From contig CM059431.1 of the NCBI GenBank assembly GCA_030390025.1, positions 103,852,001 through 103,916,000 on the forward strand: a stretch of 64,000 nucleotides of DNA. The letters are read 5' to 3'. Below the pieces are notes generated by a model. It was given only the letters and a program-made list of their open reading frames with translations, was not told the DNA's origin and searched no databases. Source of the stretch: Squalus acanthias (taxonomy: Eukaryota). Positions 10,274 through 63,620 of this stretch are shown piece by piece (position 1 is the stretch's first letter; every line of letters begins with the position of its first letter). Both the position numbers and the translations under genes were made by a program.

Positions 10274-10571
10274 TGTGGAGATGCCGGTGTTGGACTGGGA
10301 TGGACAAATGTGAGAAGTCGCACAACACCAGGTTATAGTCCAACAGCTTTATTTGAAATCACAAGCTTTCGGAGCGCTGCTCCTTCGTCAGGTGAAGTGA
10401 AGAGATGCATATAGGCACAGCATATATAGTCAGAGAACAGAGTGTTCTCTGACTATATATGCTGTGCCTTTATGCATCTCTTCACTTCACCTGACGAAGG
10501 AGCAGCGCTCCGAAAGCTTGTGATTTCAAATAAAGCTGTTGGACTATAACCTGGTGTTGTGCGACTTCTCA
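10274..10571. mobile_element. Penelope-like-derived palindromic element with 12-bp TSD
   Basis: Arms 10311-10439 and 10443-10571 with one mismatch; ATATTCTCCTGA at 10262-10273 and 10571-10582. Confidence 0.85.
10487..10523 (+). ncRNA. Minimal type I hammerhead ribozyme motif, mirrored on the minus strand at 10359-10395
   Basis: TCAC-CTGACGA-A-GGAGC agc GCTCC-GAAA-GC-TT-GTGA: stem I, core boxes, stem II and palindromic AGCT stem III, as in PLE-associated hammerheads. Confidence 0.7.
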
Positions 10572-10788
10572 TATTCTCCTGAGCTTTCAATAATCTCCAA
10601 GTGAAGTAGGATATTTAACGCCTTGAAGAGTTGACATTATTCTGACATCAGCCTGGCCGGAAGTTCAAGTCTTAACTCCTGGATCAGGGGGTTGAATGTT
10701 CTGAAAATCGCACCGTTGCTGGCAGACAGAGGCGGGAAATGTCATAAGGAAAGATGGAGGTGGAAAAGGAAAGAAAAACAATTTAATT

Positions 10789-24972: not shown

Positions 24973-25767
24973 TAGTAGTGGCTGGGATCGGGAGGATGGG
25001 TAGTGTCTGGGTTCGGGAGAGTGGGTAGTGGCTGGGATCGGGAGGGTGGGTAGTGGCTGGGATCGGGAGGGTGGGTAGTGTCTGGGATCGGGAGGGTGGG
25101 TAGTGGCTGGGATCGGGAGAGTGGGTAGTGGCTGGGATCGGGAGAGTGGGTAGTGGCTGGGATCGGGAGAGTGGGTAGTGTCTGGGATCGGGAGGGTGGG
25201 TAGTGGCTGTGATCGGGAGGGTGGGTAGTGTCTGGGATCGGGAGAGTGGGTAGTGGCTGGGATCGGGAGAGTGGGTAGTGTCTGGGATCGGGAGGGTGGG
25301 TAGTGGCTGGGATCGGGAGGGTGGGTAGTGTCTGGGATCGGGAGGGTGGGTAGTGGCTGGGATAGGGAGGGTGGGTAGTGTCTGGGATCAGGAGGGTGGG
25401 TAGTGGCTGGGATCGGGAGGGTGGGTAGTGTCTGGGATCGGGAGGATGGGTAGTGTCTGGGTTCGGGAGAGTGGGTAGTGGCTGGGATCGGGAGGGTGGG
25501 TAGTGGTGGCTGAGATCGGGAGGGTGGGTAGTGGCTGGGATCGGGAGGGTGGGTAGTGGTGGCTGGGATCGGGAGGGTGGGTAGTGGCTGGGATCGGGAG
25601 GGTGGGTAGTGGCTGGGATCGGGAGGGTGGGTAGTGGTGGCTGGGATCGGGAGGGTGGGTAGTGGTGGCTGGGATCGGGAGAGTGGGTAGTAGTGGCTGG
25701 GATCGGGAGGGTGGGCAGTGGTGGCTGGGATCAGGAGGGTGGGTAGTAGTTTCTGGGATCGGGAGAG
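24973..25767 (+). repeat. G-rich minisatellite, 25-bp unit GGGTAGTGkCTGGGATCGGGAGrGT, ~31 units, some 28 bp
   Basis: Read directly from the sequence. Confidence 0.97.
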
Positions 25768-33854: not shown

Positions 33855-34700
33855 CTTGGAGGGGGTGCAGCACAGATTCAACAGAATGATACCAGGTGCT
33901 TAAAGGGTTAAATTATGAGGACAGGTTGCATAAACTTGGCTTGTATTCCCTTATGTTTAGAAGGTTGAGGAGTGGTCTAATTGAGCTATTTAGAATGATA
34001 AAGGGATTTGATAGGATTGGAGAGGTATTTCCTAGATTATTTTCCCCAGATTAGCCAGGGTTTTCTATCTGTTTTTTTCGCCCGCCCAGGAGATCCCATG
34101 GCTGCGGGTGGGGTGGGGAGTGTATATATTGCAATACACAAGGTATCGCAATTGTGTGAGACAGGCTGGATGGACCAGAGGGTCTTTACCTGTCCCTCTT
34201 TGTTCGTATGTTTGTATAACACAAAGAAACTATTTCCTCTGGTGGGGGAATCCAGAACAAGGGGGTGCAATGACGAGGCCATTCATGAGTGAAATCACGA
34301 AGCACTTTTTCACAAAAAAAAGGGTAGGGGGAAATCAGCATCTCGCTCCCCCAAAAGGCTGTGGATGCTGGGTCCATAAGAATTTTCAAGGCAGCGATCG
34401 ATCGATATTTGTTGGTTAAGGGTATCAAGGGATATGGAGCAAAGGCAGGTAAATGGAGTTGAGGTACAGATCAGCCATGCTCTATTTGAATGGCTGGAGT
34501 TGAGGTACAGATCAGCCATGCTCTATTTGAATGGCTGGAGTGGAGGTACAGATCAGCCATGCTCTATTTGAATGGCTGGAGTGGAGGTACAGATCAGCCA
34601 TGCTCTATTTGAATGGCTGGAGTGGAGGTACAGATCAGCCATGCTCTATTTGAATGGCAGAGCAGGATCGAGGGGCTGAATGGCCTACTCCTGTTCCTAT
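33855..34700 (+). mobile_element. CR1 3' part with an inserted CR1-type UTR (34010-34217) and an internal tandem array
   Basis: GVQHRFNRMIPG, KLGLYSL; CR1 3' UTR. Confidence 0.8.
34454..34658 (+). repeat. 5 x 41-bp tandem repeat of a CR1 3' UTR segment
   Basis: TGGAGTkGAGGTACAGATCAGCCATGCTCTATTTGAATGGC x5. Confidence 0.97.
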
Positions 34701-45314: not shown

Positions 45315-47062
45315 AAAAGGGTTAAGTTATTAGGACAGGTTGCACAGACTAGGTTTGCATTCCCTCAATTAAGGGGTGATCTAATTGAGGTATTTAAGGT
45401 GATCGACGATGTTGATAGGGTAGATAGAGAGAAACTATTTCCTCTGGGGGGGGTGGCGGAGTCCAGAACAAGGGGGCACAACCTTAAAATTAGAGCCAGG
45501 GCCGTTCAGGGGTGATGTTCGGAAGCACTTCTTCACACAAAGGGCAATGGAAATCTGGAACTCTCTCCCCCCTAAAAAGCTGTTGAGGCTGGGGGTCAAT
45601 TGAAAATTTCAAAACTGAGATTGATTGATTTTTGTTGGGCAAGGGTATTAAAGGACATGGAACCAAGGCGGGTAGATGGAGTTAAGATACAGATCAGCCA
45701 TGATCTCATTGAAAGGTGGAACAGGCTTGAGGGGCTGAATGGCCTCCTCCTGTTCCTATGTTCGTATGTTTGTCATATACAGTAGGTCACCGATGTTTTG
45801 CTCAAAAGAATATGCCATATAATATGATTCTTTAGGCCAAGCAGAAGCATCTGGATTCTCAGGCAGAGTTCCTTGCCATTTCTGGGTAACCCAACAGGAT
45901 TGGTGCTATTAACTCCACATGTACACTGTTCATAGTGTCTTATGAAGTGGTCCATAAATGGCTTTATAACATGGGACACATGGGAAAATTAAAATTTGAG
46001 TAACCATAACTCAAGCTCCTAAAAAATGCTCTTTTCTCTAGAGTAAGGAAGTCTTACTACAATTGTACAGGGCTTTGGTGAAACCACACCTGGAGTACTG
46101 TGCACAGTTTTGGTCTCCTTATCTGAGGAAGGTACATATATGCCATAGAGGCGGTGCAACAAAGGTTCACTAGATTGATCCCTGGGATGAGAGGGTTGTC
46201 CTATGAGGAGAGATTGAGTAGATTGGGCCTATACTCTCTGGAGTTTAGAAGAGTGAGAGGTGATCTCATTGAAACATATAAGATTCTGAGGGAGATTGAC
46301 AGGGTAGATGCTGAGAGGTTGTTTCCCCTGGCTGGAGAGTCTAGAACTAGGGGACATAGTCTCAGGATAAGTGGTCGGCCTTTTAAGACTGAGATGAGGA
46401 GGAATTTCTTCACTCAGAGGATTGTGAATCTTTGTTATTCTCTAACCCAAAGGGCTGTGGATGCTGAGTTGTTGAGTATATTCAAGGCTGAGATAGACAG
46501 ATAGATGGACCCTAGAGAAATCAAGGGATATGGGGATCGGGCAGGAAAGTGGAGTTGAGGTCGAAGATCAGCCCTGATCTTACTGAATGGCGGAGCAGGC
46601 TCGAAGGGCCGTATGGCCGACTCCTGCTCTTAATTCTTATGTTCTTATGTTCGTAAAAGAGAAGGCTGAGGGGTGGCCGGATAGAGGTCTTTAAGATTAT
46701 GGAGTTGTTCAATAGGGTAGACGTAGAGAAGATGTTTTCACTTGTGGGGGAGATCAAAACTAGGGGTCATAAGTATAAGACAGTCCCTAATAAATCCAAT
46801 AAGGATTCAGGAGAAACTTCTTTACCCAGAGAGTGATTAGAATGTGGAACTCGCTACCACGGGGAGTAGTTGAGGCGACTAGCACAGATACATTTAAGGG
46901 GAAGCTAGTTAAGTACATGAGGGAAAAAGGAATAGAAGGTTATGTTGATGGGGTGAGATGAAGAGGGGTGGGAGGAGGCTGGTGTGGAGCATAAACACCG
47001 GCACAGACCAGTTGGGTCGAATGGCCTGTTTTTGTGCTGTACATTCTATGTAATTCTTATGT
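45315..47062 (+). mobile_element. Three CR1 3' ends (45315-45770, 46040-46650, 46655-47062)
   Basis: RGDLIE/RTRGH/FFTQR motifs and CR1 tails. Confidence 0.88.
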
Positions 47063-48134
47063 AATCAGTTTTCAGTCCTCTTGGGATATATATGTAGCAC
47101 GTTTTTAAAGACGTAGATACAGAATCATACTGCCTTTTCTACATCTTCTAACCTCTAGACCCTATCAAGGATTATTAAGTAGTTTACTTCTATCAATATA
47201 ATTTATGCCTCTTAGCATTTTAAAGATTGGAATGGTGTTTTCTTCAGGTATCTTTACTCCAATCAAAATATGGTCAGCTCGGCAAGTGCCTCCTCAGAAC
47301 TTAGACTGAGAATTTCCTCAGAGCTGCATCGCTGTAATTTCGACAGAAGTGTGTCAGTGCAAGTTTATTAAGGGTTACGGATCCAAGTTGGGCTGGTGGA
47401 GTTAAGATACAGAAAAGCCACGATCTAATTGAATGGCAGAACAGGCTCGAGGAGCTGAATGGTCTACTCCTGTTCTTATGTTCCAAGAAAACCCCACAAA
47501 GTTCCAGCAACGGAGCAGGAGCAGCTCCAAGGAACATCTCGGCCCTAGAATCCTAAGTCCTCGAATCATTCTTGTCCGTCTTCTCTGAATATTCGCCCTC
47601 TCCCTCAGGGCAGACTTGCTCAGAGAATGAGATTGATAACATTTTCTCCCACTGCCCTAACAGTTAAGCATTTATCTTGATCTTCAAGATCAGGTCCATT
47701 GCAACGAATGTTGAACTAAAGAGCAAATCAGAATGCACCTGCAATAAACCTGCTGAGCCACTTGTTAAGCTTCTGACCCTGCACGTCAAAGCGTCGTACC
47801 CGTGAAAGTTGGCTAATGCACTTTTATACTGACTGTGCCTCTGGAGCTTTTTGCTCTGATTGGCTCAGGTAAAAACATGGGAAACCATAGAATCACACAG
47901 AATGTACAGCACAGAAAGAGGCCAGTCGGCCTAACAGATCCGTGCCGGTGTTTGTGCTCCACACCAGCCTTACCTCACCTCACCCTATCAGCATACCCAA
48001 TACAGAATTCAGGAGAAACTCCTTTACCCAGAGACTGGCAATAATGTGAAACTTTCTACCACCAGGAGCGGTTGAGGCGAAGAGCATAGATGCCTTTAAG
48101 GGGTAGCTAGATAAACACATGAGGGAGAAAAGAA

Positions 48135-60278: not shown

Positions 60279-60579
60279 CTTCAACCAGTTATTCTGTCTG
60301 ACAGGTAGATGAAACTTAAATAACTTAAGTAAATGATTTGTGTATCTTACAGACAAAACTATTATAGCTGACGAAGCAAAAGATTAACATTCAAAAACAT
60401 AGAAAATAGGAATGATGAGGTAAAATTCTCACCATTATTTTACTGTATATTTTTTGATGGAAGGTGTTCCAGTATTACATAGAATTACTTAGTATTTACA
60501 GCATAGAATCAGACCATTCGGTTCAACTACTCTGTGCCGGTATTTATGCTCCACACGAGCCTCCTCCCAACTCCTCTTC

Positions 60580-62566
60580 ATTATAATGTTGCGAAGAATA
60601 GTAGCAAGCCTGAGGATTGGGAGAGCTTTGGAAACCAGCGGGGGGTGACCAAAAAATTGATAAAAGGGGAGAAGGTAGAATATGAGAGTAAACTAGCAAA
60701 AAATATAAAAACAGATTGTGGGAGCTTCTACGGGTATGTAAAAGGGAAGAGAGTAGCAAAAGTAAACGTTGGTCCCTTAGAGGCTGAGACAGGAGGAATT
60801 GTGGTGGGGAATGGGGAAGAGCCAGAGACTTTGGACAAATATTTTGTATCTGTCTTCACAGTAGAAGACACAAAAAGTATACCAAAAATAGTGGAGCACC
60901 AAGGGGCTAATGAGAGCGAGGAACTTAAAGTAATTAATATCAGTAGAGAAAAGTTACTTGAGAAACTAATGGGACTAAAAGCCAAAGAATCCCCTGGACC
61001 TGATGGCCTACATCCTGGGGTTCTAAGGGATGTGGCTGCAGTGATGGTGGATGTATTGGTTGTGATCTTCTAAAATTCCCTAGATTCTACAACGGTCCCA
61101 GCAAATGTAACCCCATTATTCAGTAAAGGAGGGAGAGAGAAAACGAGTCACTGTGTACCAGTTAGCCTGGCATCAGTCGTCGGGAAAATGTTGGAATCCA
61201 TTATCAAGGAAGTGGTAACAGGGCACTTAGAAAATCCTAATATGATTAGGCAGAGTCAACATGGTTTTATGAAAGGGAAATTGTGTTTAACAAATTTATT
61301 AGAGTTTTTTGGGGGTGTGGCTAGCGAGGTGGATGGTGGGGGGGCGGCAGTGGATGTAGTGTATTTGGATTTCCAAAAGGCATTCGATAAGGTGCCGTAT
61401 AAAAGGTTGCTACGCAAGGTAAGGGCTCATGGGGTTGGGGTTAATATATTAGCATGGATAGAGGATTGGTTAACAGACAGAAAACAGAGAGTAGGGATAA
61501 ATGAGTCATTTTCCGGTTGGCAGGCTGTAACTAGTAGGGTGCCGCAAGGATCATTGCTGGGGCATCAGCCATTTACAATGTATATTAATGACTTAGATGA
61601 AGGGACCGAGTGCAATGTATCCAAGTTTGCTGATGATGCAGAGCTGGGTGGGGGGGTGGGCTGTGAGGAGGAACAGGGAGCCAGCTTGGGGGCGGGGGTG
61701 GGCGGGGAATTGGACAGGTTGAGTGAGTGGGCAATAAGGTGGTGGATGGAGTATGGTGTGGGGAGGTGTGTGAGGTTATTCACTTTGGTAGGAGGAATGG
61801 AAAAGTGTTTTTTGAACGGTGAGAGACTGTTAAATGCTGGTGTTCGGAGAGATTTAGGTGTCCTCGTACAGGAAACACAGAAAGCTGGCATGCGGGTGCA
61901 GCGGAAGGCAAATGGCCTGTTGGCCTTTATTGCAAGGGGGTTGGAGTACAAGAGTAAGGAAGTTTTGCTGCAATCGTATGGGGTTTTGGTGAGACCACAC
62001 CCGGAGTACTGTGCACAGCTTTGGTCGCCTTATCTGAGGAAGGACATACTTGTCTTAGAGGCGGTGCCACAATGGTTCACTAGATTGAGCCCTGGGATGG
62101 GGAGAGGGGGTTGTCCTATGAGCAGAGATTGTGTAGATTGGGCCTATACTCTCTGGAGTTTAGAAGAATGAGAGGTGATCTCATTAAAACATATAAAATA
62201 CTGAGGGGGATTGACAGGGTAGATGCTAAGAGGTTGTTTTCCCCTGGCTGGAGAGTCTGGAACTGGGGGGCATAGTCTCAGGATAAGGGGTCAGCCATTT
62301 GGGACGGAGATGCGAGGTATTTCTTCACTCAGAGGGTTGTGAATCTTTGGGGTTCTCTCTCCCAGAGGGCTGTGGATGCTGAGTCGTTGAGTATATTCAA
62401 GGCTGAGATGGATGGATTTTTGGACTCTAGGGGAATCAAGGGATGTGGGGATCGGGCGGGAAAGTGGAGTTGAGGTCGAAGATCAGCCATGATCTTATTG
62501 AATGGTGGAGCAGGCTCAAAGAGCCGTACGGCCTACTCCTGCTCCTAATTCTTATTTTCTTATGTT
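60580..62566 (+). mobile_element. 2-kb CR1 (disrupted ORF2 with RT) inserted in a minus-strand CR1 3' end (60495-60579 and 62567-62915)
   Basis: SPGPDGLHP...QHGFMKG...YLDFQKAFDKVP...VPQGSLLG...KFADD; stops and frameshifts. Confidence 0.95.
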
Positions 62567-63186
62567 CTAACCCCATCAATATATCCTTCTATTCCTTTCT
62601 CCCTGATGTGTTTATCTAGCTTCCCCTTAAATGCATCTATACTATTCGCCTCAACCACTCCCTGTGGTAGCGAGTTCCACATTCTCGCCACTCTCTGGGT
62701 GAAGAAGTTTCTCCTGAATTCCCCATTGGATTTATTTGTGACTATCTTATATTTATGGTTCCTACTTCTGGTCTCCCCCACAAGTGCAAACATCTTCTCT
62801 ACGTCTACCCTATCAAAGCCTTTCATAATCTTATAGACCTCTGCCAGGTCACCTCTTAGCCTTCTCCTTTCTAGAGAAAGGAGCCCCAGCCTGTTCAAAC
62901 TTTTCTGATAGTTATAATATTTTGGCTTGTACAGCCTTATTATTTTACCCAGTTCTAATCAATAATACATTGCAGCATTGAAACATGCCATGAGCTTACC
63001 ATAATTGATATAATAAATATGAATTACAAGACTATAATGTGATGAAGTAGCACACCTGCTATTAAACTGCAAGAGCAGAGTTTGAGCAGTTTTTCAGTAG
63101 TATCTGCAGGCCACATTAGATTATAACCTTAAATCATCCCTACAATAACTGCTATTTATTATTATATACGGAACAGTGTTTGTTAT

Positions 63187-63620
63187 AAGAACATAAGAAA
63201 TAGGAGCAGGAGTAGGCCATTCAGCCCTTTGAGCCTGCTCCCCCATTCAATAAGATCATGGCTGATCTTCGACCTCAACTCCACCCTCACGCCCAATCCC
63301 CACATCCTTTGATTCCCCCAGTGTCCAAAAATCTCTCGATCTCAGCCTTGACTATACTCAACGACTGGGCATCTACAGCCCTCTGGGGTAGAGAATTCCA
63401 AAGATTCACAACCCTTTGAGCGAAGAAATTTCTCCTCATCTCAGTCCTAAATGGCCGACTCCTTATTCTGAGACTGTGACCCCTAGCTCTAGATGCCCCA
63501 GCCAGGGGAAACATTCTCCCAATATCGACCCTGTCAAGCCCTGTAAGAATTTTATACATTTCAATGAGATCACCTCTCATTCTTCTAAACTCTCGGGAAC
63601 ATTGGCCTAATTTACTCAAT
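63187..63620 (-). mobile_element. CR1 3' end
   Basis: ORF 63287-63619. Confidence 0.9.

Follow-up and report, generated by a model that had tools for sequence, protein, structure and literature searches.

Clustered sense-strand A>G changes in CR1-like LINE copies, probably derived from ADAR-edited RNA

A sense-strand A>G excess in one LINE insertion

Why does one LINE copy hold G at so many places where its sister copies hold A? The copy lies in a window of 64,000 bases (G000:C7:103,852,001-103,916,000 in a 3.71-Gb assembly), and a preliminary description of it had proposed that its transcript was hyper-edited by ADAR before reverse transcription. Sister copies and sequence patterns were searched in the same genome, and the reference state at each place was taken as the base held by at least 70% of 29 long sister copies. 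Positions 60580-62569 (plus strand) are the 3′ 2 kb of a 5′-truncated non-LTR LINE copy, comprising part of ORF2 and the 3′ end. The Pfam domain RVT_1, the reverse transcriptase of ORF2, was matched here (Table 1) and in sister L002. Elements of the CR1 clade are marked by 5′ truncation, a 3′ tail of short repeats and the lack of a target-site duplication, and the copies had these features, with common 3′ ends, varied 5′ ends and a short-repeat tail; no target-site duplication was evident at the focal copy, the longest word common to both of its junctions being 5 bases. The label rests on motifs that we take to be those of CR1, and we therefore write CR1-like. The focal copy is nested in an older, opposite-strand element of the same kind, the two pieces of which join up, but for 5 missing bases, when aligned to the window copy at 46665-47065.

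Measured against the 29 sisters, the focal copy had changed 87 of 630 A to G (13.8%) and 10 of 481 T to C (2.1%; Fisher p=2e-13), so that the excess first described at this place stands and the two rates are far from equal. The sisters themselves showed A>G at 0.2-2.6%. G>A (16/549) and C>T (13/258) were within or under the sisters' range and the remaining classes in or near it; an APOBEC-type excess of sense-strand G>A was thus absent from the focal copy, where G>A did not exceed the sisters' rate. Sisters were approximately 90-92% identical to each other (top 60 pairs), and the focal copy was 82-85% identical to them (long matches). When it was compared pairwise with other copies in the window, places with G in the focal copy and A in the other outnumbered the reverse in seven of seven comparisons.

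The changes were strongly clustered, with 34 adjacent pairs of changed A sites compared to a shuffle mean of 12.2, a number reached in none of 20,000 shuffles. This result bears out the runs of A>G noted earlier, and three dense patches were evident (Table 1). Sites quoted in the preliminary description (61312-61346, 62259, 62265, 62301-2, 62351-2, 62410 and 62414) are among the called changes; its comparison near 61894-61902 was right for 61894 and 61898, whereas its last two G's reflect an 8-base deletion after 61902. As had also been noticed, the changed A's often followed T (32/140) or A (35/201), compared to 10/92 after C and 10/173 after G (p=1e-4). Among the A's before G, 36/200 were changed (p=0.064 in the focal copy alone), so the ADAR-type 3′ G preference was borne out only by the pooled copies described below. 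Codon positions 1, 2 and 3 accounted for 9, 5 and 8 of 22 changes, with no third-position bias. The third patch includes a G-rich 16-base insert (61693-61708) that has no counterpart in the sisters and may reflect slippage in G runs made by the changes.

The A>G shift stopped at the ends of the focal element; neither adjoining piece of the older element, the flanks tested being repeat rather than unique DNA, shared it (Table 1). The G's are not a subfamily consensus, since the sisters hold A, and the 40 candidates that were scored included no daughter copy, the next best being 76-85% identical.

Table 1. Features of the focal locus and A>G and T>C counts on the sense strand of further LINE copies; counts for L064-L077 include the searched window.
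Feature	Position	Strand	Evidence or counts
CR1-like LINE copy with sense-strand A>G hypermutation	60580..62569	+	A>G 87/630 vs T>C 10/481 against 29 sisters
1st dense A>G patch, 22 sites	60630..60834	+	focal site list
Pfam RVT_1 match	61158..61640	+	residues 29-189 of open frame starting 61074; E=2.6e-16
2nd dense A>G patch, 11 sites, within reverse transcriptase domain	61312..61361	+	focal site list
3rd dense A>G patch, 30 sites, directly after reverse transcriptase catalytic motif	61638..61898	+	focal site list, frame
Decayed 3′ tail, short 8-base repeats	62545..62569	+	8-base unit also terminates other window copies
Left piece of older CR1-like host element, no A>G excess	60474..60579	-	A>G 0/25
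Right piece of older CR1-like host element, no A>G excess	62570..62860	-	A>G 3/62, T>C 2/89
L064			A>G 48/473 vs T>C 5/400
L065			A>G 28/346 vs T>C 5/317
L066			two 5′ pieces: A>G 18/90 vs T>C 1/63, 12/32 vs 2/27; 3′ piece 2/74 vs 1/83
L067			A>G 136/317 vs T>C 20/272
L068			A>G 79/337 vs T>C 13/300
L071			A>G 70/427 vs T>C 22/348
L072			A>G 90/542 vs T>C 48/406; weak, p=0.041
L073			A>G 31/85 vs T>C 2/97
L074			A>G 19/278 vs T>C 6/253; weak, p=0.022
L075	G000:C2:64216275-64217248	-	A>G 137/265 vs T>C 1/247, to 3′ end; nearest other copy 79%
L076			A>G 37/66 vs T>C 1/76
L077			A>G 87/234 vs T>C 19/203

Recurrence, sequence context and frequency

Four 35-place patterns from the element, each with six A set to G, were searched through the whole genome with three mismatches allowed. 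They matched 15 distinct places besides the focal copy, and 12 of these were LINE copies in which A>G exceeded T>C over their length (Table 1). L075 is the most extreme clean case; L067 lies at G000:C8:67.05 Mb. The background was higher in L067, L071, L072 and L077 because these copies are more distant from the reference copies. The other three matches were dropped: in L069 and L070 the G-rich match lay outside the pieces that align to a reference copy, and L078 had A>G 5/41 and T>C 7/47. A strict 34-place pattern matched in the focal copy only. When six T were instead set to C as a mirror control, one pattern had no match in the genome and a second had 18, all at the mismatch limit and mostly with the same C's, as in subfamily variants; none of the four of these 18 that were examined was a T>C-rich copy (e.g., T>C 9/278, A>G 7/392), the control comprising these two patterns.

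The 13 hypermutated copies lie on both assembly strands (8 plus, 5 minus). Their shared sense-strand bias is not independent evidence for the additional copies because they were selected for sense-strand A>G. The clustering in seven of the 13 (including a piece of L066) was reached by less than 2% of shuffles, and in one more by 4%; the five most changed were uniformly dense. The heavily edited copies were only 66-76% identical to a sister, and they would be overlooked in repeat annotation or assigned too great an age.

Several of these copies have features of their own. In L064, L065, L066, L068 and L071, whichever pattern found them, A>G falls off approximately 700 bases from the 3′ end, a drop that could mark the end of a partner RNA or a template switch. 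A generally protected 3′ end, from an antisense promoter or template switching, was rejected, as L073, L075 and L076 (found by the 3′ pattern) and also L067 are changed to the end; the apparent protection arises partly because of where the searches were placed. L066 (1404-3035; the same place as L062) comprises three pieces split by later inserts of approximately 75 and 870 bases, and its 3′ piece is unedited. In L074, which is partly edited, the 5′ end of the copy is immediately preceded by an inverted 50-base piece (776-825; 92% alike) from near the 3′ end of the element.

Pooled counts, taken outside the searched windows from 14 pieces of the 13 copies, were A>G 699/3616 and T>C 139/3121. 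Within the close subfamily (10 pieces, search windows again left out), A>G was 383/2283 (16.8%) compared to 400/26001 (1.5%) in 63 ordinary sisters, in which T>C was 1.8%. The same 10 pieces had T>C 41/2021, A>C 24 and A>T 27; the last two classes hardly rose, from 0.8% and 0.9% in the ordinary sisters to 1.1% and 1.2%. Approximately 97% of the excess at A was therefore A>G (15.2 points, compared to 0.5 for A>C plus A>T).

The pooled changes depended on both neighbors, in keeping with the bias seen by the preliminary description. On the 5′ side, A was changed in 220/695 cases after T (31.7%), 240/940 after A (25.5%), 82/562 after C (14.6%) and 117/1093 after G (10.7%; p=2e-31), and C exceeded G with p=0.025; G preceded 117 of the 659 changes for which the 5′ base is known. 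Because new CpGs decay back, the true rate after C must be higher than the value given. On the 3′ side, the corresponding values were 286/1121 before G (25.5%), 75/351 before C (21.4%), 184/930 before A (19.8%) and 128/846 before T (15.1%; G vs the rest, p=1e-6). The top triplet was TAG, with 76/194 changed. The 5′ T preference is not decisive because the ordinary sisters show a twofold rise of their own after T (139/5482, 2.5%, compared to 1.2-1.4% after the other bases, with A, C and G alike). Where a 5′ flank could be measured (8 of 13 copies), it showed no A>G excess.

The frequency of such copies was estimated at one searched place. With A and G left free, the pattern matched 1,918 copies, and it matched between 5/28 and 19/57 of the ordinary sisters (the larger set having been collected partly via that place), which implies approximately 5,800-10,700 copies covering it. 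The place is covered by seven copies of the close subfamily known to be edited, and the edited share is thus at least 0.07-0.12%. This value is a lower bound; the true share is probably several-fold higher because, of 11 known edited copies that span the place, its pattern recovered only 2.

Age of the changes and competing explanations

An A>G change after C creates a CpG, and the decay of such sites carries information about age. C>T next to a changed A was found in 18/76 cases, compared to 27/473 next to an unchanged A (pooled, p=4e-6); the close subfamily had 13/43 at new CpGs, and the focal copy 3/9 compared to 4/78 beside unchanged A. Ordinary sisters showed C>T in 225/664 cases at 21 old CpG places and in 7/50 beside chance A>G changes. 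The new CpGs have thus decayed almost as far as the old ones, which indicates that the G's have resided in methylated DNA for approximately as long as the copies have existed, and this speaks against both an assembly artefact and late editing. Public contigs at the focal copy are dominated by sister copies. In contigs of another organism, the unique left flank was found at depth 28.3, with 8 differences over 249 bases. At 60818 and 60820, in a patch of nine G's, one contig (depth 27.3) had two A>T and no G>A among the matches listed. These data hint that a contig of another organism, at single-copy depth, shares most of the G's near 60818.

The competing explanations have to account for changes that are of one type and on one strand, clustered, dependent on their neighbors, confined to the insert, old and recurrent. 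We consider it probable that ADAR hyper-edited a double-stranded LINE RNA that was then reverse transcribed into the germline. The main rival is error-prone synthesis of the second (sense) strand, with G placed opposite template T by polymerase eta or iota, or by the LINE enzyme working with a skewed nucleotide pool. Such synthesis would also be sense-specific, would stay within the insert and would date from the same time as the copy, and polymerase eta, which prefers A after T or A, shares the observed 5′ preference. The near-exclusive A>G within the excess at A is, however, purer than the spectrum that we understand polymerase eta to have, and loads such as those of L075 and L076, with one T>C each, are far over the polymerase error rates known to us. 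The 3′ G preference and the excess of 5′ C over 5′ G likewise fit ADAR better, and we regard error-prone synthesis as unlikely. Deamination of adenine in DNA after insertion, by ADAR acting on an RNA:DNA hybrid or by a hypothetical adenine-editing genome defence, appears somewhat less likely again. TA is indeed the favored context, as this reading would have it, but AA was changed nearly as often as TA; change of TA on both strands, as TpA-directed hypermutation of double-stranded DNA would give, was not observed, T>C being at background. Moreover, the adjoining older repeats were untouched, and the decay of new CpGs places the changes close in time to the insertion event.

The two remaining explanations are both highly improbable. 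Errors of sequencing, assembly or polishing might be suspected in patches this rich in G, particularly as none of the contigs listed spans the stretch. Against this stand the C>T changes beside new G's, which need long residence in methylated DNA, the occurrence of the 13 copies on both assembly strands, and the foreign contig that seems to share G's. GC-biased gene conversion, or a G-rich subfamily in which the G's only appear derived, could draw on the changed sites that edited copies have in common, which exceed chance (650 vs 422 over 62 pairs). GC bias would lift T>C equally, however, and T>C in the focal copy is only at background, so that GC-biased substitution, held open in the preliminary description on account of some T>C changes, finds no footing here. 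A subfamily state is contradicted by each copy having its own set of G's, with the focal copy and L061 having 2 of 61-67 other changes in common, and by the lack of any close relative of the focal copy or L075 among the 40 scored candidates. The conversion and subfamily readings are thus largely refuted, and the shared sites fit preferred targets.

Edited LINE RNA as the likely source

The proposal that the CR1 transcript was hyper-edited before reverse transcription is supported by these results; the enzyme would be an ADAR, to judge from the spectrum, strand, context and clustering of the changes. We infer both that the change preceded reverse transcription and what the partner strand may have been. 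A CR1-like LINE transcript would have formed a duplex, complete or partial, with antisense LINE RNA or with an inverted copy carried on the same (read-through) transcript; alternatively, an intronic copy mobilised from a host transcript may have supplied the partner. ADAR would deaminate many adenosines to inosine in this RNA, and reverse transcription would fix the inosines as G in the new insertion. The focal copy would have been dead on arrival and would then have aged like its sisters. An inverted match within their own 3-kb locus was absent in 10 of the 12 other copies, and pairing would have taken place at the donor locus.

Two local variants of this mechanism were rejected. One was a host transcript at the focal locus paired with an inverted neighbor (63182-63620): T>C on the neighbor's own sense strand is not in excess (2/117), and most of the focal changes fall beyond the part that could pair. 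The other was carried-along host RNA, which would have left a co-edited 5′ flank; none was found in the 8 of 13 copies with measurable flanks. The neighbor itself (minus strand) is a 3′ fragment of another subfamily with an uncertain A>G excess on its own sense strand (11/105 vs T>C 2/117, p=0.008); this shows no clear 5′ bias, and the comparison set holds few close relatives.

The context agrees with what is known of ADAR. Depletion of 5′ G is a mark of the enzyme (PMC2873906, PMC8586724, PMC5625713), a 3′ G preference is found in most vertebrates (PMC5625713), and inosine is read as G (PMC5224506). Elephant shark brain RNA contains 200,171 hyper-edited sites, 81% of them in repeats, and the study that reported them (Porath et al., PMC5625713), which includes chicken CR1, describes the same class of substrate, CR1 RNA paired with inverted copies, and the same neighbor preference; that editing is in RNA only and is not inherited, whereas the pattern here is in genomic DNA. 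Retroviral A-to-G changes linked to ADAR (RAV-1, avian leukosis virus, HTLV-2 and STLV-3; cited in PMC8586724) resemble ours in that A-to-I editing of RNA was fixed by reverse transcription, with 5′ G depleted; those are viral sequences from infected or cultured cells, whereas the copies described here are aged, non-LTR and fixed in the germline.

Editing fossils in retroelements are already known, and the present ones most likely differ in being the work of another enzyme, ADAR, acting on RNA. APOBEC G>A fossils are established in LTR elements and lizard L1 (Knisbacher and Levanon, PMC4866542; Lindic et al., PMC3880073) and share with our copies the clustered, strand-biased, single-type changes made at insertion in rare copies. 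The edited lizard L1 copies (85/32,872, 0.26%; PMC3880073) are of an order similar to our lower bound. Those fossils are G>A, from C-to-U change on first-strand cDNA, whereas the present ones are A>G, in an ADAR-like context, in a CR1-like LINE; the accessible text of the lizard and zebrafish screen describes G-to-A changes, for which C-to-T served as the control. ADAR1 also acts on human LINE-1, although its restriction of that element is mainly editing-independent (Orecchini et al., PMC5224506), unlike our reading. In transfected human L1 RNA, the same paper found no editing in more than 2.5 kb, and the authors allow for a small edited fraction; by analogy, the copies described here would be such a fraction that reached the germline. 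A review (PMC4982230) calls a role of ADAR editing in retroelement evolution or mutational suppression undetermined but logical to assume, in a passage on Alu, and the available text of PMC5974252 describes no re-integration of edited elements. In our targeted literature search, LINE copies with A>G fossils of the ADAR type were not encountered; subscription papers were mostly out of reach, so such a report may exist.

The copying of edited RNA back into inherited DNA has long been assumed, and these copies would apparently be the first case for a LINE-type element. If the reading is correct, a LINE RNA that is double-stranded and edited remains a usable template for reverse transcription in the germline, and edits made in RNA can be passed on as DNA. 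The question becomes one that assemblies by themselves can address: any assembly can be screened for sense-strand A>G clusters, whose age can be read from subfamily and CpG decay and whose neighbors can be set against profiles of RNA editing. We lean slightly toward the broader view that vertebrate genomes hold a fossil record of germline ADAR activity in LINE copies made from hyper-edited RNA (here at least about one per thousand, with up to half of the adenosines changed). On this view, ADAR would restrict LINEs by mutating them and would at once create heritable G- and CpG-rich sequence, as an RNA-level twin of APOBEC DNA editing, and its past germline activity and the neighbors it preferred could be followed through time in the copies.

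The window has three further features of note. A G-rich tandem array with a period of 25 and approximately 31 copies lies at 24975-25765. At 34454-34658, a 41-base unit that originated close to the 3′ end of a CR1-like element is repeated five times in tandem, with 99% identity between the copies. Finally, positions 10307-10575 form a 269-base near-perfect palindrome that is 97% self-complementary.
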